A stretch of 58,605 bases of DNA, taken from assembly GCA_049699715.1 (NCBI GenBank), contig JBNAVB010000003.1, positions 1 through 58,605 of the forward strand, given 5' to 3'. Position 1 is the first letter of the stretch, and every line of letters starts with the position of its first letter. Source of the DNA: Candidatus Pacearchaeota archaeon (lineage in GTDB: Archaea; Nanobdellota; Nanobdellia; Pacearchaeales; UBA284). Of this stretch, positions 1 to 49,206 are shown piece after piece. Under the pieces are notes generated by a model. The model was not told the DNA's origin. It did not search any database and saw only the letters and a program-made list of their open reading frames with translations. The translations under genes and the position numbers were made by a program.

Positions 1-51
1 GGGTCGCATTCCTCCTATGCTTGAAAGCATAGGTATCCTGCGACTTATGTA
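1..51 (-). mobile_element. End of non-autonomous IS200/IS605-type element (PATE/MITE), cut by window edge
   Basis: gggtcgcattcctcCTATGCTtgaaAGCATAGgtatcctgcgacttatgta matches the reverse complement of 49026-49076 except for compensatory changes in the hairpin; followed by ATGA. Confidence 0.8.
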
Positions 52-567
52 ATGAATATAATCAAAAACAAGAAAGGCCAAGCAGGGGAGTCGATGGCAG
101 ACTTGTCAGCTGCCGTAATTTTAGTTTTGCTGCTTATTGTTTTCTTTATACTCTCTAACACGTTATGGGCCCGCTCTAGCGTAGACATCAAAAAATTCTC
201 CAGCACTTACTCAAAAATAGATCAAGAACATTTTTCGCTTTATTCATGGCTCCAAAAATCTGTTTTAATCACCTATGAGAATCAAAAGCAGAATATAACA
301 ATCGCTGAGCTCATTATCCTAACGGATTTCGACCGAAGTTATAACTCCCTTCTCAATATAGAAGCAAAAAAAGCCTTCGGAGAAGATTTTGAATTCCAAA
401 TAATCTCCGAAGAAGAGATCACAAGAATAGGTTGGCAACCAGCATTCATCGCAGGTCAGTTTATGCTTATACCTTCGCCAACAATGAAAGGAATTCTATT
501 TTATATTCCATCGCCAACAAAAAACAAACCGATATTCGTAAATATTGCAAAAAAAGAGGTAAAATGA
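52..567 (+). CDS. Type IV pilin-like protein (class III signal peptide)
   Basis: N-terminus KNKKG|Q followed by a hydrophobic helix (AAVILVLLLIVFFIL). Confidence 0.6.
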   Translation: MNIIKNKKGQAGESMADLSAAVILVLLLIVFFILSNTLWARSSVDIKKFSSTYSKIDQEHFSLYSWLQKSVLITYENQKQNITIAELIILTDFDRSYNSLLNIEAKKAFGEDFEFQIISEEEITRIGWQPAFIAGQFMLIPSPTMKGILFYIPSPTKNKPIFVNIAKKEVK

Positions 568-1355
568 ATAAAAGAGCAGTTGCATTCGCATATAGCATTA
601 TAATCGCAATGATAGTCCTTATGTCAGCGGCATGGTATGCGTTTACAACAACTAACAACAAAATCACAGCTGAAGTGACCGCCTTATCGGTATTAAGAAA
701 TTACTACAATGAGCAGGACAGATTTTCAGTTTATCTTGAAGAATCTCAGAAGCTCGCGGCTTCACAGGCATTTTATCAGCTTTTGAAAGATTCTGCAATA
801 GACAAATCGCAAATTTCGTGCAAGATCATTGAGAATGTGATTGTTTGGAGCGACAGCTGCCATCCAGAAGAGGATTTTATTAGAGTTAAATTCATAGAAG
901 ATTACAGATTTTCTTTCAGTAGCCTAATGAAAAATTATCCCAATGAGAAATTCAGGCCAGAATATGCCAACGCGCTTAATGAAGCCATGGACGAAATAAT
1001 CTCTGTGACCACCCCTTTCACTCTTAGCATACAAAAACAAGGCACTTTTGCAACATATACATTTAATTATACCATAGACCCAACCACAAAACTCAATCTA
1101 ACCCTACAATCAATTTATCTCAAAGATTTTGAAGAGCTCTACAATAAAATAAAAGAAGAAAAGAACAAATGTTCTTCCGTAAGCGCAGACTGTTTCAAAA
1201 ACCTCAATTTTGAGCATTGGACTTTTACGACAGAGGATAAAATGTCATATCTTTTGTTCAAATTCAAGACAAAAGGCGCTTTTATTTTCAAAGAGCCTGA
1301 AACAAACGCCCAAAACTTCAAGCCAATCGAATTAAATTTTATAATTGAAAAATAA
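564..1355 (+). CDS. Pilin-like secreted protein (class III signal peptide)
   Basis: Start moved to ATG 564 (ATGA overlap with upstream stop, GAGGT RBS); MNKRA|V plus hydrophobic helix. Confidence 0.55.
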   Translation: MNKRAVAFAYSIIIAMIVLMSAAWYAFTTTNNKITAEVTALSVLRNYYNEQDRFSVYLEESQKLAASQAFYQLLKDSAIDKSQISCKIIENVIVWSDSCHPEEDFIRVKFIEDYRFSFSSLMKNYPNEKFRPEYANALNEAMDEIISVTTPFTLSIQKQGTFATYTFNYTIDPTTKLNLTLQSIYLKDFEELYNKIKEEKNKCSSVSADCFKNLNFEHWTFTTEDKMSYLLFKFKTKGAFIFKEPETNAQNFKPIELNFIIEK

Positions 1356-1416
1356 CCAATTGATTGCATAAAAATTTAAAAACAAACCTTTCTTTTTTAA
1401 GAGGAATAATTTAAAA

Positions 1417-1581
1417 GAGATCATGAATAAAAATGTTACAAAGAATTCCAAGGTTGAGAAGAATAGAGGGCAACATCAGCCCTCTTTCTTTTAACGAGAT
1501 TCAGAAATTAATTCAGAAATTAAATTTAGTGGAAGAAGGCAATTCCTCTCTCGCTAAAACCGAGGTATCCTTGCATTAGAA
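1417..1581 (-). mobile_element. Non-autonomous IS200/IS605-type element (one end degenerate)
   Basis: 1417-1574 identical to 8642-8799; terminal hairpin gcaattcctctctcgctaaaaccgaggtatccttgc; abuts ATGA of rpa. Confidence 0.75.
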
Positions 1582-2553
1582 ATGATTCAAGCAACTTATC
1601 AACAGTTGATAGAAAGAATTTCTAGATTAAGCGGTTTAGAGCTCAACGAAATCCAAAGGAGGGTTGAAGCAAAGAAAGCAAAATTAAGTGGATTAATCAG
1701 TGACGAAGGCGCCGCACAAGTCGTAGCGGCCGAGCTGGGCATTTCTTTTGATAAACAGAAATTCAAGATAATTGATTTGCTTATAGGAATGAAAAAAATC
1801 CAAGTCGTTGGCAAAGTTCTTGAGATTTATCCTATAAGGAAATATAAGAGGGCAGAGCATGAAGGGGAGATTGGCTCGATGCTTATAGCTGATGAGACTT
1901 CTGCAGTTCGTGTTGTTCTATGGGACACTAACCATATAGAACTCATAAAAAATAACACAATCCAAAAGGATTCTGTAATTGAGATAAAAAATGCCGATGT
2001 TCGTGGTACTACAGCAAAAGAGATTCATCTTAATTCTACATCAGAAATATCTCTCAGTGATGCCAAGATTGAAAAAATCAAAATTGAATTAGAGAAACCG
2101 AGGATGGCAAAGCTCTCTGAGCTTAAAAACGGCGAGCAAGCCAGTATCCGTGGCAATATAGTCCAGTTATTTCAGCCAGCATTTTTCTCGGTTTGCCCAG
2201 AGTGCAACATGAAAGTTTCATTCGAAGGGAACAAGGCAGTGTGCGTAAGACATGGCGCGATTATTCCATCAAAGCGCGCGATTCTTAATATGGTAATTGA
2301 TGATGGCTCAGATAACATAAGGGCAATGGCTTTCAGTGAGAATATCGCAAAATTCTTGAAAATCAGTGACGATGAAGTGTTGAACTTAGAAAATCCTCAA
2401 TTTTTCCTTAGCAAAAAAGCCGAGTTGCTTGGAACTGAATGGATTTTTTCTGGGCGTTCAAGAAAAAATATCTTGTTCAACCGCAGCGAGTTTGTTATTA
2501 ATTCTCTCCAAGAATCCCAGCCGGAAGAAATAATAAAGGAGTTGAGCGAATAA
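1582..2553 (+). CDS. rpa: Replication protein A (OB folds plus Zn finger)
   Basis: N-terminal GLISDEGAAQVVAAELG, OB-fold DETSAVRVVLWD, CPEC...CVRH Zn finger; upstream of radA. Confidence 0.85.
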   Translation: MIQATYQQLIERISRLSGLELNEIQRRVEAKKAKLSGLISDEGAAQVVAAELGISFDKQKFKIIDLLIGMKKIQVVGKVLEIYPIRKYKRAEHEGEIGSMLIADETSAVRVVLWDTNHIELIKNNTIQKDSVIEIKNADVRGTTAKEIHLNSTSEISLSDAKIEKIKIELEKPRMAKLSELKNGEQASIRGNIVQLFQPAFFSVCPECNMKVSFEGNKAVCVRHGAIIPSKRAILNMVIDDGSDNIRAMAFSENIAKFLKISDDEVLNLENPQFFLSKKAELLGTEWIFSGRSRKNILFNRSEFVINSLQESQPEEIIKELSE

Positions 2554-2617
2554 AGCAATTCTAAAGCATATCTTTCACTGGAATAATCTTTATAAAAGTC
2601 AACTCTCTTGTTAAGAT

Positions 2618-3607
2618 ATGGCTAAGGAAAAAAAAGAGAAAGAAAGTAAGGGCATGGATGAATTGAGGCTGACTGATTTGCCTGGAATCGGGCCAACAAC
2701 AGCGACAAAACTTGAAGAAGCGGGCTATAGCGACTTGATGGCAATCGCAGTCATGACCCCATCTGATTTGAGTGCAGTGGCGGATTTGGGAGAAGCTGTC
2801 GCAAGAAAGGCTATTTTAGCCGCACGAAAGATGCTCCATCTCGAGTTCGAAGACGCAACAGAATACATGAAAAAACGCGAACAAGTCTTCAAGATTACAA
2901 CAGGCTCAAAAAATCTCGATGCGCTACTCGGAGGGGGGGTTGAGACAGGCGCGATTACAGAGGCTGCCGGAGCTTTTGGTTGCGGCAAAACTCAGATAGG
3001 CCATTGTCTCGCAATCAATGTTCAACTTCCAAAAGAACAGGGCGGCGCGGAAGGTAAAGCTGTTTACATAGACACAGAAAGCACTTTCAGGCCAGACAGG
3101 ATAAAACAAATTGCTTTAGCGAAAGGCCTCGATCCAGAAATTGTCCTCAAGAATATTTTCGTAGCAAGAGCTTTCAATGCAGATCATCAGATTTTGCTTG
3201 TTGATAAAGTTACAGAGCTCATAAAAAATGGAGAGCCTATTAAATTGATAATCGTAGATTCATTGATGGCCCACTTCCGTGCTGAGTTTGCCGGGAGAGG
3301 CATGCTTGCAGACAGACAGCAAAAAATTAACAAACATCTTCACAATTTAATGAGGCTCGCAGAGGCCCACAACATAGCGATATACATCACAAACCAAGTC
3401 ATGGCTAACCCTGCCATAATGTTCGGCGATCCAACAACTCCCATAGGCGGCCATATAGTTGCGCATGGCTCGACTTACAGGATATATTTAAGAAAGGGAA
3501 AAAAAGATTCAAGAGTCGCAAAAATGATTGACTCTCCGAACCTGCCCGAGTCAGAAACAATTTTCTTCATCACAGCAAAAGGTATAGAAGATGGTGAGCT
3601 AAAATAA
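2618..3607 (+). CDS. radA: DNA repair and recombination protein RadA
   Basis: HhH LPGIGP, Walker [32 protein letters not shown]. Confidence 0.97.
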
Positions 3608-3638
3608 TTTTGAAAAATTTTGAGATAATTAACTTTAG

Positions 3639-4691
3639 TCATTGACTTGGAGCTCTTTCTTTGTCATTATTCATTTCCTGGGTTTTTCTGATATTTGTCT
3701 TTGAATAAAGTGTTCTTTGGATTGCAACAATCTTGTTTTCTTCTCGGGGTACAGAATCTCCAAATAGTTTTATTTGATATTCTCTGGCAGTTCGTCCGCT
3801 CAGTTTTTTGGTTAATTCATCGCATTTTTGGCTAATCTCGCAATGGTCGCACAGCCTCCCGCGTTCAGGGAAAACATTTCCGGATTCGAACTGTTGTTCC
3901 ATGCCTTTTATCATCTCCATAAAATCGTAGAAATTAATATCGTTTCTCTTCATCGGATAGATTTCATCTTTCATGATAAGCAGATATTCCAAGGCTATTT
4001 TGTCGCTCAAATAAATTGGATTACCCCCCCATTGTTTTGCTTCTTCTTCTGAAACTCCAATAGATTTTGCGAATTCCTTGTCTTTATTGCACAAACATCC
4101 CAAGGCAAGAGCATACAATGTAAATTGAGGGTCATATTTCAATTTCATATCGCCAGGAACTCTATGTCCAGATTTTATGTCTCTTATTTTTGGCCCGTAT
4201 AGAATTGAGTCAATTCTCCCGTTGAAAAAATGCCCGTTAATTTCAAATATCGGAATCTTATATTCAATATGGATTGGTGCGGGTTCTTTTGAAAGTCGTT
4301 CATACATCTTATAACACATTTGCCATATTTCTTCTCTGATTATCCAAGGCTCGGCTTCATTTTTCCATTTTATTTGTTTGCCTTGGATAGTTCCATTAGC
4401 CACAATGAAATTCCACCATCCCCCTTTTCTCCCTCTGCCTTCTTCATTCTTCTTGCCAGCGATTACATTTGCAAAATCCTCTGCAGAGCGGAATCTTATT
4501 TGATATAATTTGGTTTGTTTATCTTTTTTGTAGAGATATTCTGCAGCTTTATGCATTATAATTCCTTTAGCCATATCGCCGGTAACAGGTTTTTGAATGC
4601 CCATAAAATGTATCAAGAAATACTTGTACGGGCAGTAAGTTGCTTCATCAATATTTGTAGGATTCCAAACATATTTCGGCTTAGATTGCAT
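3639..4691 (-). CDS. PD-(D/E)XK nuclease, Cas4/AddB-like with predicted Fe-S cluster
   Basis: N-terminal CP, G..MH, GRID...DIKSG, Q..LY, C-terminal CDHC.....C. Confidence 0.8.
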   Translation of the reverse strand: MQSKPKYVWNPTNIDEATYCPYKYFLIHFMGIQKPVTGDMAKGIIMHKAAEYLYKKDKQTKLYQIRFRSAEDFANVIAGKKNEEGRGRKGGWWNFIVANGTIQGKQIKWKNEAEPWIIREEIWQMCYKMYERLSKEPAPIHIEYKIPIFEINGHFFNGRIDSILYGPKIRDIKSGHRVPGDMKLKYDPQFTLYALALGCLCNKDKEFAKSIGVSEEEAKQWGGNPIYLSDKIALEYLLIMKDEIYPMKRNDINFYDFMEMIKGMEQQFESGNVFPERGRLCDHCEISQKCDELTKKLSGRTAREYQIKLFGDSVPREENKIVAIQRTLYSKTNIRKTQEMNNDKERAPSQ

Positions 4692-4754
4692 TGAGAAACC
4701 AGGAACAAGAAACTTATAAAATTAGTTGTGAAAAAAAATAACTATTATATCACT

Positions 4755-5642
4755 TCATTTCTTCTTTCTTTTTATTTCTTCAGTTTTCGCAACAATCTTT
4801 TTCAATTTTGCGATTTTAGCTTTAGTTCCCGGAGTTCTAGTTTTTTTGGTCTTTATTTCTTCGCTAACATCTCTCAATTCTTTCACTGATGAAACCAATG
4901 GTTGCAAAATCTGTGAGAACGCGCTCTGCAAAGCCTGTATTTCTGTATTCAAACTTTCAATTTTTGAGCTATACTGATTGACTTGGCTCATAATCCCTAA
5001 TTGAACTTTGTCAAATGCAATCTCGAGTTTTTTCATGCGCTCTTCTACTTGTTTGAGCTTTGATTCAATATGTTTCTTTAATTCTGAAACATCGCCTATT
5101 TTCTCGCGGAACTCTTCCCATTTCTCGTTGATGACCTCTTCAACAAGCTCTTCAACAACCTCGGTTCCTGCTGGCGCAATAGCAGGCGCAACAGCCTCGT
5201 AGGGAGAAGGATATGCTTCATAGCCCGTCTGAGGCACTGGCGCATATTCTTCCTCTGCTCCTGGCGCAGGGGCCCCCACAAGAGCCTCTGGTGCATAACT
5301 TTCTTCAGGAGCTTCCTCTTGCTCCATTATCGAAGGTATCATCTCCTCGCCAGGAACTGCAGCTTCTTCCTCTATAATTTCACTTGGAACTTCTGCTTCT
5401 GGCGCCTCTTCATATTCGCCTGGCGCGGGCGCTTCTTCTTCTAATTCGCCAATTTCTCCTCCGTACTCTTCTTCCATGCCAGCAGTCCTTGCAAGTTCAA
5501 GTTTAACCTTGGCTTGGTTAATTGCATCATTAATCTCTGTTGAGCTGTAGCCTTCGCTTCTCAGATACTTTATGATGTCAGCATCGGTGTAGCCTTGTCT
5601 ACTCAGCTTCAAAACTTCATTCACAGGAACTTTTTTTGCCAT
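4755..5642 (-). CDS. Hypothetical protein with acidic Glu/Pro/Ala linker and coiled coil
   Basis: 295-aa ORF, low-complexity middle, heptad-rich C-terminal half. Confidence 0.75.
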   Translation of the reverse strand: MAKKVPVNEVLKLSRQGYTDADIIKYLRSEGYSSTEINDAINQAKVKLELARTAGMEEEYGGEIGELEEEAPAPGEYEEAPEAEVPSEIIEEEAAVPGEEMIPSIMEQEEAPEESYAPEALVGAPAPGAEEEYAPVPQTGYEAYPSPYEAVAPAIAPAGTEVVEELVEEVINEKWEEFREKIGDVSELKKHIESKLKQVEERMKKLEIAFDKVQLGIMSQVNQYSSKIESLNTEIQALQSAFSQILQPLVSSVKELRDVSEEIKTKKTRTPGTKAKIAKLKKIVAKTEEIKRKKK

Positions 5643-5656
5643 TTTTACTCTATTTT

Positions 5657-6049
5657 TTACTCTTCTACTTCAATAATCTCGCCTCGTTTACTTTTCACCA
5701 TCTTGCTCACAATCCTCTTGACATCGTCTTCTGTGGCATACTTGAGAGGCTCGAACATCTTCATAGAACGCTCCAAAACTTTTAACTCTTCCTTACGCGC
5801 AAGCTCAGCGCTTTCGCTGATAATATGTTCAACAGCCTCTTTTAACCGGTCAATTTCATCTCTTAAGCCAGAAATATCGTCCTTGATAAGCGTTAACTCT
5901 TTGTTCAGTCGGTCATTTTGTCTTAGTATAGTTTGGCTTACGACAGCCATCCTTTCCTTAAGTAGTCTCATATTTTCTTCCAAATCATTCATCCTTGTGC
6001 TAAAATCCGCGAGAAGTGCTGATACAGCCCCCAATTCTTGATTGTCCAT
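5657..6049 (-). CDS. Hypothetical coiled-coil protein
   Basis: 130-aa helical ORF co-oriented with 4755-5642. Confidence 0.7.
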   Translation of the reverse strand: MDNQELGAVSALLADFSTRMNDLEENMRLLKERMAVVSQTILRQNDRLNKELTLIKDDISGLRDEIDRLKEAVEHIISESAELARKEELKVLERSMKMFEPLKYATEDDVKRIVSKMVKSKRGEIIEVEE

Positions 6050-6241: not shown

Positions 6242-8533
6242 ATGATGTTTAAAGAGGGTACTCAATTATATTCTTATGAGGTTGTGCGCGAGGGCGGACA
6301 GGATGTTATGTATGTTAATTATCTAGGCGCGGCTTTTGTCCCTAGCATCGCTGATTTGCCCATCGTCATGGCCAGAACAATAGACTATTTAACAGAATCT
6401 CCAAGTGTTACAAGGATTGTGTTTGTGCAGCAGAGGAACTATAGCTATGATTTCCATGAAGTCACAATGCTCAACGAAATAGCTCAGCTCTACACTCATT
6501 TGATAAAACAAGAGAAAGTTCTTTCAGCCACAACTCTTGAGCCGTATAAATGCAAGAAGCATTTAGCTCAACGCTACGAGGCCATGCGCTATCTAATTTT
6601 AACATTGTTGAAACAGGATCCAATTGGTTGTTATGTAGAAACAAAAAGATTATTGCACGAAGAGAGAATAGCAGCCAAAGGGTTGTCTCAAGCCGAGCTC
6701 ACTTGCGAAAATCATTACATAAGGCTTCTGACAAAAATTGTTGCGATGCTAGACAATTTAACATTAATAAAAGAGGTAAAAGATAGGATAGAAGGCTACA
6801 AGTTAGGCGACAGAAGCCTTTACATTGAATTGTTCAGGCCAGAAATAGTCCCGAATTTCACTTTCACGAGGCTTATGGCAGCAATGCCCACGGAAGCAGA
6901 GATTGTCGATGAGTATGAAGTCGGCCCAGAGCATGACAAAAGCTCTGTAACAATCTTGAAAATTCCAAATTCAACAAAATATGTTTATCATCTAACTGCT
7001 CCTGAGTTCACTTTGAATGAAGATTTACAATCTTTAGTGAACTTAGCAAGAAATGTGTTGCTCGAGCATAAGCCAAAAGCAGAAGAGTTCACTGATCCCA
7101 CCCGCATAAGACAAGTTTTTTTTAACATAGCCAGGGACCTTTTGCAAGAACTGAGTGAAACAAAAAGAATTGCTCTTAACTATAGACAGCTTAACAAACT
7201 CGCTACTATTCTTGTGAGGCACACCATAGGCTTCGGCCTTATCGAAGTTCTTTTACAGGATGAAAAACTTCAAGATATAATGGTTAATGCCCCTGCCGGT
7301 GCTGTCCCAATATTTGTTAGGCATCAAGATTATGATGAATGCGACACTAATATCATCCCAAGTCAGGAAGACACCGAATCATGGGCCGCGAAGTTTAGAA
7401 TGATGTCTGGCCGCGCGCTTGATGAAGCTAACCCTGTGCTTGACACAGAGCTCATCATTGGCACATCCCGTGCAAGAGTTGCTATAATCCAACAGCCGTT
7501 ATCGCCTTATGGTTTAGCTTATGCACTTAGAAGACACAGAGAAAAACCCTGGACATTGCCATTGTACATAAAAAATCGTATGATTAATTCGCTAACCGCG
7601 GGCTTATTGTCCTTTCTTATTGACGGTTCAAGAACAATGTTGATAGCAGGGACTCGAAGCTCAGGTAAAACCTCATTGTTAGGGGCCTGTATGCTGGAAA
7701 TTATGCCGCGCTTTAGGATTATTGTGTGTGAAGGAACTATGGAGTTGCCTGTAGATTCATTTAGGAATATGGGATATGACATATTGAGGATGAAAGTTCG
7801 CGAGGCTCTAACAAGAGAAAGCTCTGAACTTAGCGCAGCCGAGGGTATTAGAACGAGCTTGCGTTTAGGAGATTCTAGTTTGATTGTTGGCGAGGTGAGA
7901 AGTGAAGAGGCTTTAAGCTTGTACGAAGCAATGAGAGTTGGTGCATTAGCAAATGTTGTCGCAGGAACAATTCATGGAGCGTCGCCTTATGGTGTCTTCG
8001 ATAGAGTTGTTAATGACTTGAAAGTTCCTGCTACAAGTTTTAAAGCAACGGACATAATTGTTATAGCAAACCCCATTAAAAGCCCTGATGGATTACATAG
8101 ATGGCGCCGAGTTCTTCAGTTAGCGGAAGTCAGAAAACACTGGACATTGGACCCTACAACAGAACACGGTTTTGTAGATTTGATGAGATATGATGTTACT
8201 AAAGACGAGCTTATCGCTACAGATGACTTACTTAATGGCGAGTCAGAAGTGCTTAAAGATATCGCCGGCCAAGTTAAAGGCTGGGCAGGTTCGTGGGACG
8301 CGGTTTGGGACAATATTCTTTTAAGAGCAAAAATCAAACAAGCGATAGTTGAAGCAAGCATTAAGGCCAAAGATGCAAACTTGCTCGAAGCCCCTTTTGT
8401 AGTTAAATGTAATAATGCTTTCCATGAAATAAGCGACAAGGTAAGGCAAGAGATAGGGGTGCCCCAAGGCAAGCGCGTTTTCAAGGAATGGCAAGTATGG
8501 CTAGAACATGAACTCAAGAGAAAGAAATTGTGA
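6242..8533 (+). CDS. Type II/IV secretion (pilus assembly) ATPase, FlaI/VirB11/CpaF family
   Basis: Walker A GTRSSGKT, Walker B IVGEVRSEEA, GTIHG His box. Confidence 0.9.
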   Translation: MMFKEGTQLYSYEVVREGGQDVMYVNYLGAAFVPSIADLPIVMARTIDYLTESPSVTRIVFVQQRNYSYDFHEVTMLNEIAQLYTHLIKQEKVLSATTLEPYKCKKHLAQRYEAMRYLILTLLKQDPIGCYVETKRLLHEERIAAKGLSQAELTCENHYIRLLTKIVAMLDNLTLIKEVKDRIEGYKLGDRSLYIELFRPEIVPNFTFTRLMAAMPTEAEIVDEYEVGPEHDKSSVTILKIPNSTKYVYHLTAPEFTLNEDLQSLVNLARNVLLEHKPKAEEFTDPTRIRQVFFNIARDLLQELSETKRIALNYRQLNKLATILVRHTIGFGLIEVLLQDEKLQDIMVNAPAGAVPIFVRHQDYDECDTNIIPSQEDTESWAAKFRMMSGRALDEANPVLDTELIIGTSRARVAIIQQPLSPYGLAYALRRHREKPWTLPLYIKNRMINSLTAGLLSFLIDGSRTMLIAGTRSSGKTSLLGACMLEIMPRFRIIVCEGTMELPVDSFRNMGYDILRMKVREALTRESSELSAAEGIRTSLRLGDSSLIVGEVRSEEALSLYEAMRVGALANVVAGTIHGASPYGVFDRVVNDLKVPATSFKATDIIVIANPIKSPDGLHRWRRVLQLAEVRKHWTLDPTTEHGFVDLMRYDVTKDELIATDDLLNGESEVLKDIAGQVKGWAGSWDAVWDNILLRAKIKQAIVEASIKAKDANLLEAPFVVKCNNAFHEISDKVRQEIGVPQGKRVFKEWQVWLEHELKRKKL

Positions 8534-8617
8534 AGGCAACAAATATAGAAATATAGTTTAGAGTATAGAAAAATAAATAAAAGGGTTTTGTTGTATATTA
8601 TAGTCATATATTATCAA

Positions 8618-8809
8618 ATGAATCACTCCGCGCTAAAGCCCGAGATCATGAATAAAAATGTTACAAAGAATTCCAAGGTTGAGAAGAATAGAGGGCAACA
8701 TCAGCCCTCTTTCTTTTAACGAGATTCAGAAATTAATTCAGAAATTAAATTTAGTGGAAGAAGGCAATTCCTCTCTCGCTAAAACCGAGGTATCCTTGCC
8801 TTTTATGTA
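8618..8809 (-). mobile_element. Non-autonomous IS200/IS605-type element
   Basis: Both terminal hairpins present (8618-8647 degenerate; 8764-8799); core identical to 1417-1574; abuts ATGA at 8810. Confidence 0.8.
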
Positions 8810-9514
8810 ATGATATTCAAAAAAGAATTGGCAAACGAACTTTTTGTCTTTCTCCTTGCTTCTGTGTTTATGGCTTTCATTTTTGCCATCAAGTTGAAAT
8901 GGCCTGTATTGACTCTCGAGCCTTTAGCTATCCTTCTTGGTTTTCTTTATGCTTTGATAATGTTCGCTTTGTTCATTGGCGTTCAGAAACTTGTGGCATT
9001 TGCTCTTGATTGCAGAACCACCACGAAACTTTTGAGCTTTAGGCGGTACTGGTTCAAGCCCCATTCAATTTTTCCTTTCGAGTTCCCTGCGTGGTTTTTC
9101 CTTCCAGTGATATTAGCATTAGTAGGAATAAAATGGCCAGCGATTCTGAACTTTGATGTTGAGCCAAAAATAACTCATGTAAGGCAAAGATGGCAGAATA
9201 TAACAGAAAGTGATATCGGTAAGATCGCGATTTCTGGGCCTTTGGCTGTAATGGCCCTGGGCATCTTGATGCGAGTTTTTGGAGCGAATGAATTCGCATT
9301 CTTATGTGTCTTGTTCACTTTCGCAGCTTTGATCCCTATAGGCATGGGCTTCAAACTTTTCAATAGCTCTCGTATTTTGTGGTTTTTCTCATTTGTATTT
9401 TCACTGGCAGTGTTGCTTTTGATTAATATTCAGAGCGTATTCGCGGTTATCTTGACGGCAGTTATATTCGCTGCTCTCGCCACAATCTCTTATTATGTAT
9501 TGTATGAGAAATAA
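8810..9514 (+). CDS. Multi-pass membrane protein, M50 peptidase-like without HExxH
   Basis: Hydrophobic helices, GKIAISGPL motif typical of M50 family; no catalytic HExxH. Confidence 0.6.
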   Translation: MIFKKELANELFVFLLASVFMAFIFAIKLKWPVLTLEPLAILLGFLYALIMFALFIGVQKLVAFALDCRTTTKLLSFRRYWFKPHSIFPFEFPAWFFLPVILALVGIKWPAILNFDVEPKITHVRQRWQNITESDIGKIAISGPLAVMALGILMRVFGANEFAFLCVLFTFAALIPIGMGFKLFNSSRILWFFSFVFSLAVLLLINIQSVFAVILTAVIFAALATISYYVLYEK

Positions 9515-9536
9515 GAAATTTTTTTCTTATTTTTGA

Positions 9537-41047: not shown

Positions 41048-41064
41048 TTTTTATCCTATAGTTT

Positions 41065-42627: not shown

Positions 42628-42666
42628 TTTACGTTATGGCCAACCTTTTGTATTAATTTACATTAA

Positions 42667-44010
42667 TTAGAGACTGAGTGCGTTGTTCAAAACAGCGTGG
42701 ATTCTCTCGACCATCATTATAGGAAGGTCAACTCTTATCTCTCTCGTTCGGCCATAACGCCCCTTGCTTATAACTTTGGCATTGATTATTCCTTGCATAT
42801 CAAACTGCACGATAATGTCACTCACTCGCCTTTGCGTCAGATAATCTACTTTAAATTTTTTGCAAAGCTCACGATAAAGATTATAAACATCACCTGTAAA
42901 CAAAGGCTCGTTTCTCCTATCGCGGAAATTTTTCTTGAAAAGTTCAATGATTGCCATTAAGACAAGTTGGAATTGTTTTGGATGCGTTTCCACAGCCATT
43001 AAAATTTTGTCTGCCTCAATTTTTTCGTTGGCTTTATCAATATAATCTAATGTTATTTTGTTTTTGCCGTCTCTTTCAACTAGCTCTCCCGCAATTCTCA
43101 GCAAATCCAGCGCTCTTCTCGCGTCGCCATGCTCCCTAGCAGCGTAAGCCGCACATTTTTCTATGACTCCTTCTCCGATTACGCCTGATTTAAAAGCCTC
43201 TTTCGCTCTTTCTTTGAGGATGTCTTGGAGCTGCAATGCATTGTAGGGAGGGAATAAAATCTCTTCTTCGCTCAAAGAACTTTTGACTCTTGGATCTAAA
43301 GAATCGAGAAACTTTAAATCGTTGGATATACCGACAATGCTTATTTGTGCATTGTTCAGTTCATTGTTGATTCTCGTGAAATTGTACAAGAACTCATCCC
43401 CTATTCTTGCGACTGCTTGATCAATCTCGTCAAAGACAACAATCAACACCTGTTTCTTGTCGTCAATCAAGTTTACAAATCTGTGATAAAGCTGATCTGT
43501 GGGCAATCCTGTAGCGGGAACCTTATCTCCCAATTTTTTAATTAGCTCTGCCAAAATCCTATATTCTGTATCTGCTACTTTTTTCAACTTGCAATTAACA
43601 TATGGAATTAATAAAGTTATGTTTTGTTCCTGGGCTTTTTTCTGAAGTTGTTTTTTGATATATTGCATCACAAGTGTTTTGCCGGTGCCGGTCAACCCAT
43701 AAATAAAAAGATTGCTTGGCTTCTCTAACCTTAAGCTAGGGGCAACTATCGCGGCTACTTGGCTCACTTGCTTGTCCCTGTGTGGGATATTTTCCGGGGT
43801 GTAATTAGTCTGTAAAATTATTTTATTCTTGAAAATTGTCTGTTTGATAAAGGAATCAAAAATTTTATTGATGTCTCGCGGATCTCTTTCTTTACCAACT
43901 TTGCCATTACTTTTTCCCTTCCTATCCCCCTCCTTATTTTCTCTCTTTTCCATCCTTTCCTCGTTTTTTTGTAATTTATCGTCGTGCTTAGGCAAACGCC
44001 ACCACACCAT
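42667..44010 (-). CDS. cdc6: Orc1/Cdc6 replication initiator (true start possibly 43953)
   Basis: GLTGTGKT, DEID, LDPRVKS, HGDARRALD, GRYGRT. Confidence 0.97.
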   Translation of the reverse strand: MVWWRLPKHDDKLQKNEERMEKRENKEGDRKGKSNGKVGKERDPRDINKIFDSFIKQTIFKNKIILQTNYTPENIPHRDKQVSQVAAIVAPSLRLEKPSNLFIYGLTGTGKTLVMQYIKKQLQKKAQEQNITLLIPYVNCKLKKVADTEYRILAELIKKLGDKVPATGLPTDQLYHRFVNLIDDKKQVLIVVFDEIDQAVARIGDEFLYNFTRINNELNNAQISIVGISNDLKFLDSLDPRVKSSLSEEEILFPPYNALQLQDILKERAKEAFKSGVIGEGVIEKCAAYAAREHGDARRALDLLRIAGELVERDGKNKITLDYIDKANEKIEADKILMAVETHPKQFQLVLMAIIELFKKNFRDRRNEPLFTGDVYNLYRELCKKFKVDYLTQRRVSDIIVQFDMQGIINAKVISKGRYGRTREIRVDLPIMMVERIHAVLNNALSL

Positions 44011-44452
44011 TATTTCTAATGGAAAATGTTATGTGGCTTTTAGTTTAAAAATCTTTGTCCTCACGAAACAATAACAAAACCCTTATTGCGCATGGAATTC
44101 TTGTTTTTTAGTTTAGTAAAAAATTTATAGGTCTTTTATAATCTTGTTTTTTTAACCTTCTTGAGCAAGAATAAAATGTAACGAAAATGGAATATATACT
44201 AGGTTATAATAAAATGTAATGAAAATATTATATAAATTATACCTTAATTGGGCGGGTGTAATAATATCTTATACTAAACAAATTAATATATACACTATAA
44301 TATATAAAATTATAACATACACATACACTATAAAATTATAAAAAATATATACTACACTATACAAAAATTTATAAATGAAAAGTAATAAACCGAAAATCTC
44401 GTTGGTATTTAAAGCCTAATGAAATTTTCCATATGCAACAGGAGGGTAGGGG
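43998..44452. other. Replication origin oriC (ORBs plus AT-rich DUE)
   Basis: ORB-like TTCCATTAGAAATAATGGTGTGG (minus, ~44000-44024), TTCCATGCGCAATAAGGG (minus, 44080-44097) and TTCCATATGCAACAGGAGGG (plus, 44427-44446) flank a very AT-rich segment upstream of cdc6. Confidence 0.85.
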
Positions 44453-44599
44453 TATAAGAGCATAATTAAATAAACAATAACCCTAAAAATCATTAATCTA
44501 ATAAACTAACATAAAACAATACATTTCATGATTGTTGCATAATAAAAGAGAAAAATTTATAAACAAGTCGGGGTTTTGAATTAGTAATTATCTAATAAA

Positions 44600-44860
44600 A
44601 TGGCATTAGAAAAAAGACCAGCAAAAGAGCTTGTAGGAAAGTTAGTTGTAACAAAAGAAGGTAAGCGAATCGGCATAGTGAAAGATTTGACATTTGAGAC
44701 AAGGAGCGGCGAACTTATACAACTAGTGATAACCAACGCAACATCTTACGCTTCATCTCTTAATCTAGAAAAAGGGAAAGCCGGCGAATTTCTTATCCCT
44801 TATTCTTCGATCATGGCAATAGGGGACTTTGTCGTGGTTAGCGAAGAGGACATGAGATAA
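44600..44860 (+). CDS. PRC-barrel protein (possible CdpB-like division protein)
   Basis: LVGKLVVTKEGKRIGIVKD...IPYSSIMAIGDFVVV. Confidence 0.85.
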   Translation: MALEKRPAKELVGKLVVTKEGKRIGIVKDLTFETRSGELIQLVITNATSYASSLNLEKGKAGEFLIPYSSIMAIGDFVVVSEEDMR

Positions 44861-44896
44861 GACAAATTCTACTCCACTTTTGTTGCATTTTGAAAA

Positions 44897-45343
44897 ATGG
44901 TAGTCATTGGTTTTAATCTGAAAAAAATTCTCGTTGAAAGGAAAACTTTAGTCAGAGGCGAAGTTAAAGTTAACACAAAAATGAATATTATTGATGTCAA
45001 GAAAGAGGACATCAAACTGACAGCCGGCAAAGATGTTATAAATTTTGATTTTGAATTTGCTGTAAATTACACAGGTATAGCTAATCACACAGGCCCCGTT
45101 GCCGATATTCTCTTCGAAGGCAACGTTCTATATCTCGTAGACCCTAAAGATACAAAAAAAATTCTTGATGACTGGAAAAGGAAAGAGATAGAAGAAGAAG
45201 TCAAGCTCAAGGTTCTAAACACAATACTAGCGAAATGCAATCTTAAAGCATTGGTTCTAGAAGAAGAATTGGGATTGCCCGCGCACCTGCCTATGCCGAG
45301 ATTCGGTGGCAAAAAAGGCAAAGAAAAAGAATCAAAAAAGTAA
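44897..45343 (+). CDS. Hypothetical archaeal protein
   Basis: Globular beta-rich ORF ending LPAHLPMP. Confidence 0.75.
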   Translation: MVVIGFNLKKILVERKTLVRGEVKVNTKMNIIDVKKEDIKLTAGKDVINFDFEFAVNYTGIANHTGPVADILFEGNVLYLVDPKDTKKILDDWKRKEIEEEVKLKVLNTILAKCNLKALVLEEELGLPAHLPMPRFGGKKGKEKESKK

Positions 45344-45363
45344 AAGAAAAGTCAGAGTTTAAA

Positions 45364-45486
45364 CGCCAGGAGGAGGATTCGAACCTCCAAGTCCGTAAGG
45401 ACATCGGTTATCTAGTTTTCTTTTTGCCTAAAGATTTTTTAAATCTTTATTTCGAGACCGACGCATTACCATTCTGCCATCCTGGC
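45364..45486 (-). tRNA. tRNA-Ser(CGA) with 41-nt intron at 37/38 (45410-45450)
   Basis: GCCAGGA/TCCTGGC, G73, long variable arm, anticodon stem TCGGT/ACCGA split by intron. Confidence 0.9.
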
Positions 45487-45526
45487 AAAGGACAAGATAT
45501 TTAAATATTACCTTATTAAAAAGCTT

Positions 45527-46249
45527 ATGGCTAAGACAAGTTTAATAACAATCTTCATGATAACAACCCTATTGATTTTAACATTGGCAGTTATTGGGGC
45601 CGGTTGTAGCCAGCAAGAACAAAGGCAGCAACAAGGGCAAGAACAGCAAGAACAACAACAGGATCATCAACAACCATCGATACTTTTCTCAGATGATTTC
45701 AACACAGAACAGTCTGGGGCGATTCCATCGAAATGGACTATTGTAACAAAAGAAGGTTTGTTAGCCTCGGTAAAAGGAACAACCCAATCTAATGACATAT
45801 TTGGGATGGTCCTCGAGCTTAAAGGAAGATTTATAAAAACAGGCGGTGCGAACTGGCAAGACTACACTATCGAGACTGAGTTTAAAATATTCAATGCCGG
45901 CGAACACACTGGCCCAGAGATTCTGTTCAGGCTCCAGGACGACAATAACTACTATTTATTCTCGACAGAAACCCAACCGACAGGAACGAACTATATTCTT
46001 TACAAAGTAGCCGATAAGCAACAATTTGAGTTGAAACAAAGGGCTCAGAACAAGAGAATAGACGATGAAAAGTGGCACAAGATAAAACTGAACATCCGAG
46101 GAAATGATTTTTCAGCAGAAATAGATGGTGAGAATGTCATGACCACAACCTTCGATGGAACTTTCAACTCAGGAGGGATCGGATTAATGTCTCACCCCTT
46201 TAGCGACATCTATTTTGACAACATAGTTGTTATTGGAACCACAACATAA
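45527..46249 (+). CDS. Lipoprotein with DUF1080/ConA-like beta-sandwich domain
   Basis: Lipobox GAGC, Gln-rich linker, FSDDFN...WQDY...WHKIKL...GGIGL...FDNIVV. Confidence 0.75.
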   Translation: MAKTSLITIFMITTLLILTLAVIGAGCSQQEQRQQQGQEQQEQQQDHQQPSILFSDDFNTEQSGAIPSKWTIVTKEGLLASVKGTTQSNDIFGMVLELKGRFIKTGGANWQDYTIETEFKIFNAGEHTGPEILFRLQDDNNYYLFSTETQPTGTNYILYKVADKQQFELKQRAQNKRIDDEKWHKIKLNIRGNDFSAEIDGENVMTTTFDGTFNSGGIGLMSHPFSDIYFDNIVVIGTTT

Positions 46250-46337
46250 AAGAACATAAAAGACTACAGCATAAATTTCCACATAAATCTCTATTTCTTT
46301 GTTTTTTCTAATATAAGGATTATTTCTGTCAATTATT

Positions 46338-46970
46338 TTAAATTTTTTGTTTTATATCACCCAATTGCCATAATATAAAATCGAGCATTTTTACATCGCC
46401 AATCTCTACTCCCAATCTTTCTTTAAAATCTTTAATAATTTCTTTTATCTCTTGGCTTGCAAAAATTTTATTAAACTTCTTTTTAAGCAAATTATACACC
46501 GCTACTCTGTCGTCTATCCTTTCGTTGATATCTCTAATGTTATAATCCAATTTAATATTAAAAATTTTAGCTACTCTACTATCATAAATTGGTTGATTAT
46601 TGTCAACGGTATGGATTAATTTAGAAGCAAAACTTAATAATACCACGGGTTTACCATTTAATCTTGGAATTTTAGACAACTCAATAAGAACTTTTTTAAT
46701 ATCCGTTTCTCCTCTTTGTAACAACTCAAAATATCTATCAATTAGTTTTTCTCCAAGGCCTCCTCTATTCAAAACATAAAACTTTCTATAAACTTTTTTA
46801 AACTTATCATTATTAACTACATTACCAGTTTTAAATTCGGTTAAAATACAATTATAATCGTTGAAAAATTTTTTGTTTTTAAATTTATTAAAAATCTCCT
46901 CTTTATGCTTTTTAATTAAACTTATTATATCCTTTGTCTCCATTTGTTGGCTAATATTAAATTTTCTCAA
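46338..46970 (-). CDS. Hypothetical protein, very AT-rich
   Basis: 210-aa ORF (SFASKLIHT...PIYDS); start may be the later METKD. Confidence 0.65.
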   Translation of the reverse strand: MRKFNISQQMETKDIISLIKKHKEEIFNKFKNKKFFNDYNCILTEFKTGNVVNNDKFKKVYRKFYVLNRGGLGEKLIDRYFELLQRGETDIKKVLIELSKIPRLNGKPVVLLSFASKLIHTVDNNQPIYDSRVAKIFNIKLDYNIRDINERIDDRVAVYNLLKKKFNKIFASQEIKEIIKDFKERLGVEIGDVKMLDFILWQLGDIKQKI

Positions 46971-47092
46971 CTTCGGTCTAAATTTTGATTATTTCTTTCT
47001 CTAACTTTAAGAGGTTTAAATATATCAAATTTAATTCTCGCTTTATTAGTAATATCAATGCCCCCTTCTCTCTGTTTTTTTCTTTGTTATTT

Positions 47093-47827
47093 CTATTTTA
47101 TATTTTTCAACTTACCAAAGTTATAAACTTTGCCTTTCTCGTCCAAAACATAAACCTCAAAGTTCTTGATTGCGCGCTCTTCCAGGAACGGCGATAAGAG
47201 TTTCTCACATTTCACATCAGAACCTTCATAAACTGAGAAGAATGAGGGCAGGACAACAAGACTCTTGTCATGCCACTTGCCTTTTAGAAAACATTTATAT
47301 ATTTCTTGCTTGACACCCTCGCGAATCGACACAGCAGGATGCTCATGAGCAATAATTATTGTTTTGATTTTCTTTGCATAGATCTCCTTATCCAAAAGAA
47401 TTTTGTGGCCATGCAATATCGCGATATCATTAACAATATAAAAATTCCTTACAGTCAAATTCTTTTTCTTAGCAATTGGCTCAAGAATTGTGTCGTGATT
47501 TCCTTTAATCAGCACAACCTTTGCTTTTTTCAATAAAATGTCAAGAATCTCAAGAGTCTCGAACCATTCTTGCCTCGAGATTTCACCAAATTCGTGTTTC
47601 AAGTCGCCATTAATTACAACAATCTTTGGCTTTAACTTCAACAGCTCTAGAATTTCCTTTTTTATCTTGCTAAAAGTTACCTTTGGAACTAAAACCCCCT
47701 CTTCAATTAAAGCTTCTTCATAGCCAATATGTAAATCCCCAATGATTAACACTTTCTGTCTCGAGAGCCACAATGCTTTATTCTTTATCTCAATTCCTTT
47801 CAAAATTTCCATCTTTAATGTTTCCAT
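47093..47827 (-). CDS. Metallophosphoesterase (Lhr-associated type)
   Basis: DLHIG, NGDLKH, GNHD, HGH, HEHP. Confidence 0.9.
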   Translation of the reverse strand: METLKMEILKGIEIKNKALWLSRQKVLIIGDLHIGYEEALIEEGVLVPKVTFSKIKKEILELLKLKPKIVVINGDLKHEFGEISRQEWFETLEILDILLKKAKVVLIKGNHDTILEPIAKKKNLTVRNFYIVNDIAILHGHKILLDKEIYAKKIKTIIIAHEHPAVSIREGVKQEIYKCFLKGKWHDKSLVVLPSFFSVYEGSDVKCEKLLSPFLEERAIKNFEVYVLDEKGKVYNFGKLKNIK

Positions 47828-47829
47828 AT

Positions 47830-48060
47830 TTAACGAAGAGCACTTAAATTTAAATAATTTTCATCGAAACTTTCATTCGAATTTTGTTGTGAGTCTGTTG
47901 TGGGTCTGGCTGGCGAAGAAGTAAGGACATATGGGTAGACCACGGACATCGCCGGCATCGCCAGAGAGCTGTCAAAAGAATTTAAAACACAGGACATAGA
48001 AGCTAAAATTAAACCACAGACACAAGAAACAAGACATAACAAACAAAGCCAAAAATCCAT
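47830..48060 (-). CDS. Small hypothetical protein
   Basis: 76-aa ORF with Cys-rich hydrophobic N-terminus. Confidence 0.35.
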   Translation of the reverse strand: MDFWLCLLCLVSCVCGLILASMSCVLNSFDSSLAMPAMSVVYPYVLTSSPARPTTDSQQNSNESFDENYLNLSALR

Positions 48061-48279
48061 TTACTCGCCACTAAAATTTCTTGCTTATATATTTGAGAAA
48101 GACTAACAAAAAGGCTGGCAGATTGGGCAGAAGATTGGGCAAACAAATAGTAGTTGAAGAATGGATGACAAAAAATAGATGATAAATAAATTAAATAAAA
48201 TCACGTGCGAGTTTGCGCAACCACAAAAAGGTTATGCATAATTCATGCAATGCTTCGCAAGAATCAAGAATTCATGATC

Positions 48280-48422
48280 CTATGACAATAGGATAGGCGG
48301 CTCTAATGTAGAAAGTAGCCATAAGGCTGTAAAACTGATTAGAGCGCCCCATCCAATTAAACAAACCACGACTTCACGACTTGTCATAGTGCGGCCTTGA
48401 CCGCGAATAAGCGTATGTCGTG
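48280..48422 (+). ncRNA. IS110-family left end with bridge-RNA-like double internal-loop structure; recombinase absent
   Basis: Two stem-internal loop-stem-loop modules; loop 2 strand TTGTCATAG is the reverse complement of the element start CTATGACAA; followed by GGAGGTGA RBS and a 5-codon ORF. Confidence 0.6.
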
Positions 48423-48684
48423 CAAAATAAAAATGTATTTGAACTATAAAAAACTATAAAAGTTTTATGGAGGTGAAGAAATGAAAGAGTTCTTATAAGC
48501 AAGTTAACAGAACCGTCGGAAGAAAAATTCAAATGTTCATCTACTCTTGTTAATTCTTGAAATTTGCAAAAACCGCTTTCCTTAATTTCCCTTGATAATA
48601 GAGATAAAAATAGAAATTCCAGAAGGATTCAGGAAGAGAAACAAAACTTCCACATATACATTCTTTTTGAAGAATTCAATCTTA

Positions 48685-49017
48685 TTACTGAATTTCTATT
48701 TCTAACTTATTTTTTCCTACTGGATAAATCAAAACAGGCCCCTCTTTTTTTAAGTGCATGGCTTCTGAAATTTTTTTTGGTATTCTTATAATAAGCGAAT
48801 TCCCACTATAGCTTATTTTACTCTCCTTGCTTAAACCAAAAATGCCTTTTTCCTTTTCAATTTTTTCTATTTTTCTTGCTGTCAGCTCATCAAACCACTG
48901 TTCTTTGCATTTGACACAAACCATTGCAGGAAATCTCCCAAGTTCAATCCCATAGGTGCTATAAGCCACAACTTTCTTGACAAGTTTTCCATCGCATAAA
49001 ACGCATTTTTTTATCAT
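48685..49017 (-). CDS. YgiT-type Zn finger plus AbrB/MazE-like domain protein (antitoxin-like)
   Basis: CVLC...CVKC, then SGNSLIIRIPKKI; start set at MIKKC. Confidence 0.8.
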   Translation of the reverse strand: MIKKCVLCDGKLVKKVVAYSTYGIELGRFPAMVCVKCKEQWFDELTARKIEKIEKEKGIFGLSKESKISYSGNSLIIRIPKKISEAMHLKKEGPVLIYPVGKNKLEIEIQ

Positions 49018-49025
49018 TTTATCAT

Positions 49026-49206
49026 TACATAAGTCGCAGGATACCTCTATTTTCAAATAGAGGAGGAATGCGACCCTCCAATAAATTTAATTTCTTCAAT
49101 ATTTTAGCATGAAAGAGGGCTGATGTTGCCCCCCTATTGCTCAATCAAAAGGTATACGTTGATGCCTTGCTCATAATGCTGCGACCTTTAGGTCGCAGTA
49201 GTTTAT
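49026..49206 (+). mobile_element. Complete non-autonomous IS200/IS605-type element
   Basis: Follows TCAT; LE hairpin cctctatt-ttca-aatagagg, RE hairpin ctgcgacc-ttta-ggtcgcag-tagtttat; shares gaaagagggctgatgttgccc with the 1417 and 8618 copies. Confidence 0.85.

Follow-up and report, generated by a model that had tools for sequence, protein, structure and literature searches.

Four related repeats and the genes behind them

The window, by which we mean the whole 58,605-nt stretch of DNA analysed here, carries four related elements, each followed directly by ATGA (52-55, 1582-1585 and 8810-8813 on the plus strand, 49022-49025 on the minus strand). A sequence-only reading had placed them there, and two kinds of search agree with it: in a repeat comparison 1417-1577 and 8642-8802 are 99% identical and 1-55 is 89% identical to 49022-49076 in inverted orientation, while a covariance model of the terminal hairpin has exactly four matches in the window, at 3-51, 1537-1578, 8762-8809 and 49026-49074 (minus strand). 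In copy A (1-51, plus strand) the contig start truncates the element, of which the left-end (LE) terminal hairpin is what remains (model match 3-51, 70.2 bits); the 53 nt here also open contig C10 and close contig C21. Copy A adjoins the ATGA start of an ORF (52-567, plus strand) encoding 171 aa with a membrane-anchored N-terminus. Copy B (1417-1581, plus strand) is a miniature element without the right-end (RE) hairpin and with a variant end, ...cattagaa; the rpa-like gene (1582-2553, plus strand; 323 aa, OB folds) starts on its ATGA. Copy C (8618-8809, plus strand) is a complete miniature with an RE hairpin at 8626-8644 (loop TAAA), a hairpin at 8691-8709 (loop AACATCA), an AT-rich box at 8740-8753 and the LE hairpin at 8762-8809; its right end starts with ATGA, and the boundary there is uncertain by ~4 nt. 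A membrane-protein ORF (8810-9514, plus strand; 234 aa) begins on the ATGA that adjoins it. Copy D (49026-49210, minus strand) is a complete miniature of a second subfamily, 97% identical to a copy on contig C8. Its target side (49010-49025, minus strand) is an 8-nt tandem repeat, ATGATAAA twice in the minus-strand reading, of which the first unit holds the ATGA at 49022-49025 and the second contains the start of an antitoxin-like ORF (48685-49017), 8 nt beyond the ATGA. The ATG is thus a start codon at three copies and lies just short of one at the fourth, as had been claimed, and the AACATCA-loop hairpin described earlier is found in all three uncut copies.

The gene names proposed from sequence fared unevenly. 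RadA is confirmed (Rad51 family, 321 bits in Pfam), and the rpa product has OB-fold/RPA-type Pfam matches, with PF01336 (28.3 bits, cut-off 27) and PF17244 (26.9 bits, cut-off 25.4) passing and the RPA C-terminal domain falling below its cut-off (25.5 vs 28.5 bits). For the host proteins called 'pilin-like' (171 aa) and 'M50-like' (234 aa), the Pfam search returned no significant family.

Insertion sequence family, target and empty sites

Full-length relatives, located through the end of the element, are ~650 nt long and comprise a left end of ~170 nt, a gene for a 137-aa Y1 (HUH) transposase and a right end of ~60 nt; in this genome the full-length parent is unassembled, and its form is judged from these relatives in other organisms. 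Their products match Y1_Tnp (PF01797) at 99.1 bits (L058) and 93.2 bits (L060), and a fragment at the end of contig C26 in this genome matches 16 of 17 residues of the C-terminus of the L058 transposase (E 2e-11). Both ends carry a subterminal hairpin followed by GGTAT, alike and in the same orientation, with no terminal inverted repeats; the LE model even matches the RE hairpin of a divergent copy (L006:1335-1363). The compensatory changes noted earlier in the terminal hairpin are real: 11 of its 13 pairs vary on both sides among 27 distinct copies, and the covariation score of 0.438 compares with 0.155 for shuffled alignments, none of 500 of which attain it, and with no more than 0.148 when partners are slid. 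IS200-type insertion sequences measure ~650-700 nt, encode one small Y1 transposase behind a structured leader and have hairpin-bearing ends, of which PATE miniatures retain the ends only. The elements described here share this size, the lone Y1 transposase, the structured leader and the hairpin ends, and their miniatures likewise consist of ends only, copies C and D keeping both hairpins within 185-192 nt and having lost the transposase gene. All four repeats in the window derive from an IS200-type insertion sequence (IS200/IS605 family), of which they are non-autonomous miniatures resembling PATEs. Both the family and the orientation given in the sequence-only reading are correct, because the 137-aa Y1 gene runs antisense to the host gene, which, on the strand of the element itself, puts TCAT 5' of the left end. 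In full-length copies the AACATCA hairpin and the agaaattaaattta box sit between the LE hairpin and the transposase start, and are therefore most simply the transposase's own leader/promoter region. Flanking repeats show no consistency (an 11-nt repeat flanks the C4 copy on either side, and copy D has the 8-nt tandem repeat at its target), and ATGA or ATAA also forms the beginning of the right end.

Elements of the family lie directly 5' of a host ATGA, with tnpA antisense to the host gene, and this ATGA is mostly a start codon. At least 11 left-end junctions occur in this 622-kb DPANN (Pacearchaeota-like) genome, ten at ATGA and one, the C21 copy, at ATAA; a DNA-similarity search of other genomes added three junctions, all at ATGA. 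Seven of the ten ATGA junctions fall on the start of an ORF of at least 57 aa, including rpa and the genes for ribosomal proteins L18 and L15, where the insertions lie within a ribosomal-protein operon. A pattern scan yielded 18 of 20 distinct junctions on ORF starts; since it demanded ...TTATGTAATGA, it is silent on the frequency of ATGA and informative only on what comes after it. Ten of these 18 ORFs have a Pfam match, six of which align from profile position 5 or less within the first 10 residues, as does L18 in this genome, and an unbiased protein search placed both close relatives (2/2) on ORF starts. Against a null restricted to non-coding or start ATGA sites (expected 0.31-0.36), P is ~0.01-0.03 for 7/10 and <1e-6 for 18/20; this null is crude, resting on our own crude ORF calls, and per-copy probabilities are not multipliable because the copies are related. 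The genome-wide search for further copies thus upheld the ATGA and start-codon bias seen in the window.

Insertion at N|ATGA has been published for IS605B and ISC transposons (Kapitonov, Makarova and Koonin 2016, PMC4810608), which, as described there, belong to the same superfamily, have subterminal hairpins instead of inverted repeats and insert exactly 5' of ATGA, with no target duplication reported. They tolerate ATAA and ATCA variants, comparable to the ATAA at our C21 copy, but carry TnpB or IscB and derive from Cyanobacteria and Proteobacteria, whereas the clade studied here is tnpA-only and archaeal (DPANN). The main text of that paper says nothing of a preference for start codons or of a reverse strand kept open, and the terms 'start codon', 'initiation codon' and 'intergenic' are absent from it.

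A search of two same-genus genomes, G001 and G002, did not find the element, and empty orthologous sites are present at three genes. The uninserted starts read ATGATTCAAGC for rpa, identical in both genomes to the start found here, ATGAAG / ATGAAA for L18 and ATGATT / ATGGCT for L15. The rpa promoter region (1348-1382, plus strand) is 91% identical to that of G001, and its TATA-like box (1371-1382) lies ~22 nt before the ATG in G001 and 199 nt before it here. Of the two TATA-like boxes that had been proposed outside the far ends of the elements, this one is therefore conserved, while that at 8594-8602 is TATA-like, but the promoter box in common with relatives is another one, at 8569-8582. Over 346 genes a TATA-like peak lies at -29 to -22 from the ATG, so that most host genes look leaderless, as had been supposed.

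An open frame on the host-sense strand

In this clade tnpA avoids precisely those three codons that read as stops on the complementary strand, and the whole host-sense strand is one open frame. In all 11 full-length copies it spans ~200 codons, beginning at an ATG just inside the RE hairpin and ending in a TAA that overlaps the host ATG (TAATGA). Its length is 197-218 codons in eight complete copies, a ninth being open to the contig end (158 codons); L072 has a 257-codon frame, and in L073 the frame is open up to the end of the locus, for 179 codons or more. The remaining two frames of the same copies reach 9-38 codons only. The frame is codon-aligned antisense to tnpA (137 aa), and the eight complete tnpA genes use TTA or CTA for none of 80 Leu and TCA for none of 78 Ser (0/158 in total), although the same codons make up 31% of Leu and 22% of Ser in this genome's long ORFs. 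These eight copies share 73-84% DNA identity, and at their Leu/Ser sites codons have changed no fewer than 28 times. When the non-coding LE part (55-58 codons) is shuffled, just 1.4-3.1% of the shuffled sequences contain no stop. The controls, by contrast, do contain these codons: an unrelated Y1 gene in the window, the copy on C22 and four members of other subfamilies. Among more distant Y1 loci an open antisense frame covers the gene in 1 of 26 scored (two further loci had no match in the scoring). The frame's AAAAATG is ~55 nt in from the right end and is not preceded by a Shine-Dalgarno motif at the customary distance, which counts against the translated leader proposed below. Other subfamilies residing on ATGA starts have 25-67 open codons before TAATGA, so the full-length open frame is not needed for residence there.

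The miniatures at rpa, the membrane-protein gene and L15 (contig C10) have a 48-50-codon version of the frame. In copy B it runs from 1433 to 1579 (plus strand; 48 codons) with a TAG stop 2 nt before the rpa ATG, and in copy C from 8658 to 8810 (plus strand; 50 codons), where a TAA overlaps the host ATG (TAATGA) and the start is the counterpart of the conserved start of the ~196-codon frame in full-length relatives. Judged from those relatives in other organisms, the short version is consistent with deletion of a multiple of three bases. All six miniatures on start codons, complete or contig-cut, have an ORF, 26 codons or longer, whose end lies no more than 2 nt from the host ATG (ATG-initiated in C3b, C3c, C10b and C9, open to the contig start in two G011 copies), and none of the three copies off a start (C3d, C4, C8) has such an ORF. 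In copy D only 39 codons are open, with no start codon except a terminal ATG-TAA; its frame and that of the C9 copy are broken or short, yet both copies lie at or near starts.

A proposed translated leader and its alternatives

In operons of archaea and bacteria, termination and reinitiation are coupled where stop and start codons overlap (ATGA, TAATG). The layout at the end of the element is the same, its sequence reproducing a junction of this kind, and one uninserted relative even has a native ATGA stop/start overlap at the L18 site. The upstream 'gene' here is the reverse strand of a transposon rather than a host gene, and coupling would operate by analogy. We suggest that the element is tolerated at start codons as a translated leader that may pass ribosomes on to the host start. 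RNA over the element would come from host transcription or from the promoter-like AT-rich right terminus, and ribosomes would translate across the element on that RNA, stop at TAATGA and begin anew on the host gene. To this explanation as a whole (IS200 miniatures, docking at start codons, a frame kept open and a translated leader) we assign a probability of roughly 0.6. The sequence-only reading had offered a tolerated leader, a promoter supplied by the element or its removal from the RNA; a leader kept open for translation is a fourth option that it missed and that we now rank first. Its bolder form, in which this IS200 clade evolved translational transparency by purging the stop-complement codons from tnpA, building in the stop/start overlap and residing as a translated leader on the starts of essential genes, is more tentative, and we hold it at slightly under even odds; on that view translation across the element might also silence the antisense transposase.

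Residence could also be purely passive, the open frame having another cause, such as a real antisense-encoded protein or silencing of the transposase by transcription and translation across the element, and doing no service to the host gene. Y1 transposition needs TCAT, and in a genome that is 87% coding nearly all other ATGA sites are intragenic, so survivors would concentrate at starts; 41% of crude gene calls (257/628) begin with ATGA, and subfamilies without the long frame also occupy starts (L052, L062, L064, L069). The conserved start of the frame and its near-constant length (590 nt in five of eight complete copies) speak for this view as well. However, the Pfam search matched no family to the frame, which always ends on the host ATG and crosses the non-coding left end, where the hairpin covaries while the encoded residues vary freely, indicating that openness is kept and not a protein sequence. 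Occupancy of starts also exceeds the passive null, and we consider this explanation improbable, at a fraction of the weight given to the translated leader. A little less probable again is an outward promoter, in which the agaaattaaattta box, 56 nt before the host ATG, would act as a host-direction TATA box giving a leader of ~30-35 nt and making translation of the rest irrelevant. The box resembles the local TATA consensus, is invariant over three subfamilies that otherwise differ by ~30%, and would account for expression in broken-frame miniatures; it was also the earlier candidate for a supplied promoter. Yet in full-length copies it occupies the expected promoter site of the transposase, on the opposite strand, and this position alone explains its conservation; moreover, its spacing would place the transcript start within the hairpin, and it would leave unexplained why three codons are missing along 414 nt of tnpA.

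Two further readings, an origin as relics of an RNA-guided system (IscB/HEARO or the omega RNA of TnpB) and a fixed cis-regulatory leader RNA belonging to the host genes, are already contradicted for the window copies and appear very improbable. ISC elements are indeed reported at N|ATGA (PMC4810608), and the relative L059 has a TnpB gene behind a similar left end. Nevertheless, nothing links the window copies to the IscB/HEARO elements mentioned earlier for their ATGA target: an Rfam search of the window at gathering thresholds gave three tRNAs only, the ends belong to a Y1-only element, and the conserved module is the left end plus leader of a Y1 gene. A TnpB element was likewise rejected, the sole PF07282 match in this genome scoring 21 bits (cut-off 26.3) and lying elsewhere. 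A fixed leader is ruled out by the empty orthologous positions in both same-genus genomes searched.

The bare finding is ordinary, because both the element type and the ATGA target were already known. What stands out is the evidence, visible in its codons, of a transposon shaping its own gene in such a way that the other strand can be translated up to the host start codon. We know of no description of an IS200 or PATE element with a host-sense frame spanning the element or with a TAATGA end, and a literature search at the level of titles and abstracts returned none. For annotation, the elements create conserved-looking 'genes' of 50-200 codons that should not be taken for host proteins. If ribosomes cross them, this would explain how insertions between promoter and start of rpa and ribosomal-protein genes are tolerated in a 0.6-Mb genome with mostly leaderless mRNAs. 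It would represent a new way for mobile DNA to reduce its cost to the host and a case of long-range translational coupling in archaea, and translational transparency would then be a transposon-level adaptation to dense genomes.

Family, orientation and end structure

All four elements that the sequence-only reading had placed in the window exist there: copies A (1–51), B (1417–1581) and C (8618–8809) on the plus strand and copy D (49026–49210) on the minus strand. Using them as blastn queries, we found additional copies in the source genome (assembly G000; 622 kb, 26 contigs, 37% G+C, the window being the entire contig C3) on contigs C4, C8, C9, C10 (two), C21, C24 and C26. Contig ends often fall within the element: C2, C13 and C21 begin with its right end, which also lies close to the end of C26, and its left end, which abuts the host ATGA, opens C3 and C10 and closes C21. 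The assembly was thus broken by longer parent copies, whose interiors are missing.

Exact 24-mer scans of the genome and metagenome contigs gave zero matches; a gapped pattern derived from conserved left-end motifs recovered relatives where these had not, namely 17 metagenome loci and 5 genome loci, two of them the copies already known from another genome (G011). The 50-aa ORF of the miniatures, searched against 301 genomes of the order, matched in G000 and G011 only, plus one weak match. A junction-string match at window position 6712 was a chance match within a gene. An Rfam search of the window at gathering thresholds returned three tRNAs only; a 123-nt tRNA match at 45364–45486 on the minus strand (50.1 bits), for which ARAGORN returned none, is probably an intron-containing tRNA gene.

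Several of the relatives recovered by the gapped pattern are full length, with the transposase stop ~587 nt from the host ATGA and a right end of ~60 nt. They encode a 137-aa Y1 transposase (PF01797, 99.1 and 93.2 bits) in the gene tnpA, and one relative carries TnpB (PF07282, PF01385) in place of the Y1 gene. The final 61 nt of C26 depart from the miniature sequence, and their reverse strand encodes a peptide 16/17 identical to the C-terminus of the 137-aa protein of one such relative (L058; BLASTP, E 2e-11) and without a BLASTP match to the window's own Y1 protein. An ORF at this contig end was considered as a host-direction gene of the parent and dropped, as its reverse strand matched the Y1 C-terminus. 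Because the transposase gene reads away from the ATGA side, that side is the left end, with TCAT 5′ of it on the element strand, which bears out the orientation proposed from sequence. The empty sites described below fit N↓ATGA and equally an element that carries a terminal ATGA of its own and integrates 3′ of ATGA; the direction of the transposase gene and the TnpB-bearing relative favour TCAT on the left-end side.

Each end of the element carries a hairpin with GGTAT after it, and the left-end hairpin model also matches the right-end hairpin of one divergent copy. Since RNAalifold folded a plain MAFFT alignment poorly, a hand-set structure with model-based realignment was used. Across 27 distinct left ends, 11 of the 13 hairpin pairs changed on both sides, with a covariation score of 0.438; shuffles scored 0.155 and slid partners no more than 0.148. 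Between this hairpin and the transposase start, which has GGAGG 6–7 nt upstream, lie the AACATCA-loop hairpin and a agaaattaaattta box, most simply read as the transposase's promoter and leader. The left-end hairpin of the copy at ~9500–9760 of contig C4 contains an internal 10-nt duplication; this copy lies between convergent genes, with an identical 11-nt string on both flanks followed by TCAT/TTAT-like letters.

Two further IS200-type families occur in the genome. The second, unrelated element occupies 57950–58605 of the window and carries a 133-aa Y1 gene at 58104–58505 (PF01797, 60.8 bits), which was considered as a partner of the miniatures and rejected on account of differing hairpins and absent codon avoidance (see below). 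Its far side leads into a 55-nt repeat that also occurs on C11 and C25, bordering another transposase-like ORF on C25. The third (contig C22, 2200–3100) has a split Y1 gene and a distinct GC-rich hairpin and recurs at the ends of C6, C15, C9 and C8; its terminal letters resemble the right end of a divergent copy in another genome (G045).

Insertion at host start codons

Left-end junctions in G000 read ATGA at 10 of 11 sites and ATAA at one (C21), and the three junctions that DNA similarity identified elsewhere (two in G011, one in G045) are likewise at ATGA. N↓ATGA is the target given for IS605B and ISC elements, with ATAA and ATCA variants, in the main text of PMC4810608, where the words 'start codon' and 'intergenic' do not appear. 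Among the listings and abstracts screened from the open-access literature on IS200/IS605, none describes a start-codon habit or a stop-free reverse strand.

No copy of the element was found in either of two same-genus genomes (G001 and G002), both of which are syntenic and provide empty sites. At rpa, the host of copy B, both read ...ATGATTCAAGC straight after the promoter region, with a TATA-like box ~22 nt upstream in G001. The L18 sites carry ATGAAG and ATGAAA, the second of which forms a native stop/start overlap at ATGA, and the L15 sites read ATGGCT after a 12-nt spacer in G001 and ATGATT one base past the upstream stop in G002. From these readings, the start codon at the ATGA belongs to the host itself, and the element is placed immediately 5′ of it. 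The comparison is less clear for copy C, where orthologue N-termini differ; between the orthologues of its flanking genes, G001 has an additional ~0.9-kb ORF (locus L019, 2640–3545) and G002 a 97-nt spacer. Copy D lies inside a 1.57-kb insert with a toxin-antitoxin-like pair, which is missing from G002. This insert (47816–49383) includes an antitoxin-like zinc-ribbon/MazE-like ORF (48685–49017), and between the flanking orthologues G001 has ~5 kb of other DNA, marking a variable spot. At the target side of copy D, ATGATAAA occurs twice on the minus strand as an 8-nt tandem repeat (49010–49025), which is not an expected product of Y1 transposition.

The start-codon bias suspected in the sequence-only reading is present across the genome: 7 of the 10 ATGA junctions fall on starts of ORFs of at least 57 aa. 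These are a 171-aa membrane-anchored ORF (starting at 52), rpa and a 234-aa membrane protein (8810) in the window, and L18, L15, a 581-aa secreted protein and a 58-aa ORF elsewhere. Copy D lies 8 nt ahead of a start, the C21 ATAA junction 15 nt ahead of a ribosomal-protein start, and the C4 and C8 copies between convergent genes or past a gene end. The L18 and L15 copies both sit within a ribosomal-protein operon (C10, 1–2000), in which the genes between and beyond them are intact. Among distinct pattern-scan junctions, 18 of 20 open an ORF of at least 57 aa, a test that covers only the sequence after ATGA since ATGA was built into the pattern. Ten of these 18 ORFs have a Pfam match, and in six (UDG, MJ1316, S24e, a thioredoxin-reductase-like domain, GNAT and class-V aminotransferase) the alignment begins no later than profile position 5 and within the first 10 residues, L18 of G000 behaving likewise; judged by these profiles, the six predicted starts are true N-termini.

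A crude gene call on G000 (628 ORFs, 87% coding) gave 257 ATGA starts vs 581 intergenic ATGA sites, an expected start share of 0.31 (0.23–0.36 under other ORF cut-offs). Against this null, P is ~0.01–0.03 for 7/10 and <1e-6 for 18/20. ATGA opens 41% of the crude gene calls. Profiled upstream of 346 genes, the sequence shows a TATA-like peak at −29 to −22 without a clear Shine-Dalgarno signal, so most genes of this genome look leaderless. The same profile has AAA at −3 to −1 (62–70% A per position), and a target lengthened to AAA↓ATGA would lift the null to 0.63–0.77. We rank this source of the start-codon bias low; the A-run looks like part of the element because the same run precedes unrelated flanks at six or more sites.

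An open frame antisense to the transposase gene

In the host-sense direction, the frame whose TAA overlaps the host ATG (TAATGA) is open for 197–218 codons in the nine full-length members that the pattern scan gave for the 137-aa clade (one is cut by a contig end at 158), and the remaining two frames of the same copies run for 9–38 codons. The frame starts, by a first-ATG rule, at a conserved AAAAATG just inside the right-end hairpin, and the distance from there to the host ATG is 590 nt in five of eight complete copies (584, 593 and 638 nt in the others). It is codon-aligned antisense to tnpA. The eight complete tnpA genes use TTA/CTA for 0 of 80 Leu codons and TCA for 0 of 78 Ser codons, vs 31% of Leu and 22% of Ser in long ORFs of G000, and this at 73–84% DNA identity to one another and across 28 or more codon changes at Leu/Ser positions. 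The non-coding left-end part (55–58 codons) is stop-free too, a state reached by 1.4–3.1% of shuffles. As controls, TTA, CTA and TCA do occur in the window's own Y1 gene, in the C22 copy and in four copies of other subfamilies.

When 401 genomes of the class were searched at the protein level, with the element ends left unconstrained, two close relatives emerged (72–76% identity). Both have an open frame (257 codons; at least 179 to the locus end) that closes in TAATGA, neither uses TTA, CTA or TCA, and their host ORFs are 199 and 247 aa long. Of the remaining 28 loci, 26 were scorable, and in L096 alone among these does an antisense frame stay open across the gene. The host-sense frame has no Pfam family match, and its left-end residues vary freely while the hairpin covaries. 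On these comparisons it is openness, and not protein sequence, that the frame conserves.

Some miniatures retain this arrangement in shortened form. In copy C (8658–8810) and the L15 copy, a single 50-codon ORF runs from the conserved start to the TAATGA end; its span of 152 nt up to the host ATG and the 590 nt of the full-length copies are both 2 modulo 3, so they differ by a multiple of three. In copy B this ORF closes with a TAG stop 2 nt ahead of the rpa ATG. All six start-codon miniatures have an ORF of at least 26 codons that ends no more than 2 nt from the host ATG, initiated by ATG in copies B, C, C10b and C9 and open to the contig start in both G011 copies, vs none of three off-start copies (D; C4, with its duplication; C8, with a deletion), both samples being small.

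Possible translation across the element

Leaderless initiation at the right end's own ATGA was dropped as a general mechanism: this ATGA is in frame with the long ORF in one copy only (L057), and many copies have ATAA instead. The open frame and its overlap with the host start suggest that the element would be a translated leader for the host gene. Transcription across it could start at the displaced host promoter or in the AT-rich right terminus, a sequence similar to local TATA boxes; ribosomes would then cross the element and restart on the host ATG via the built-in stop/start overlap.
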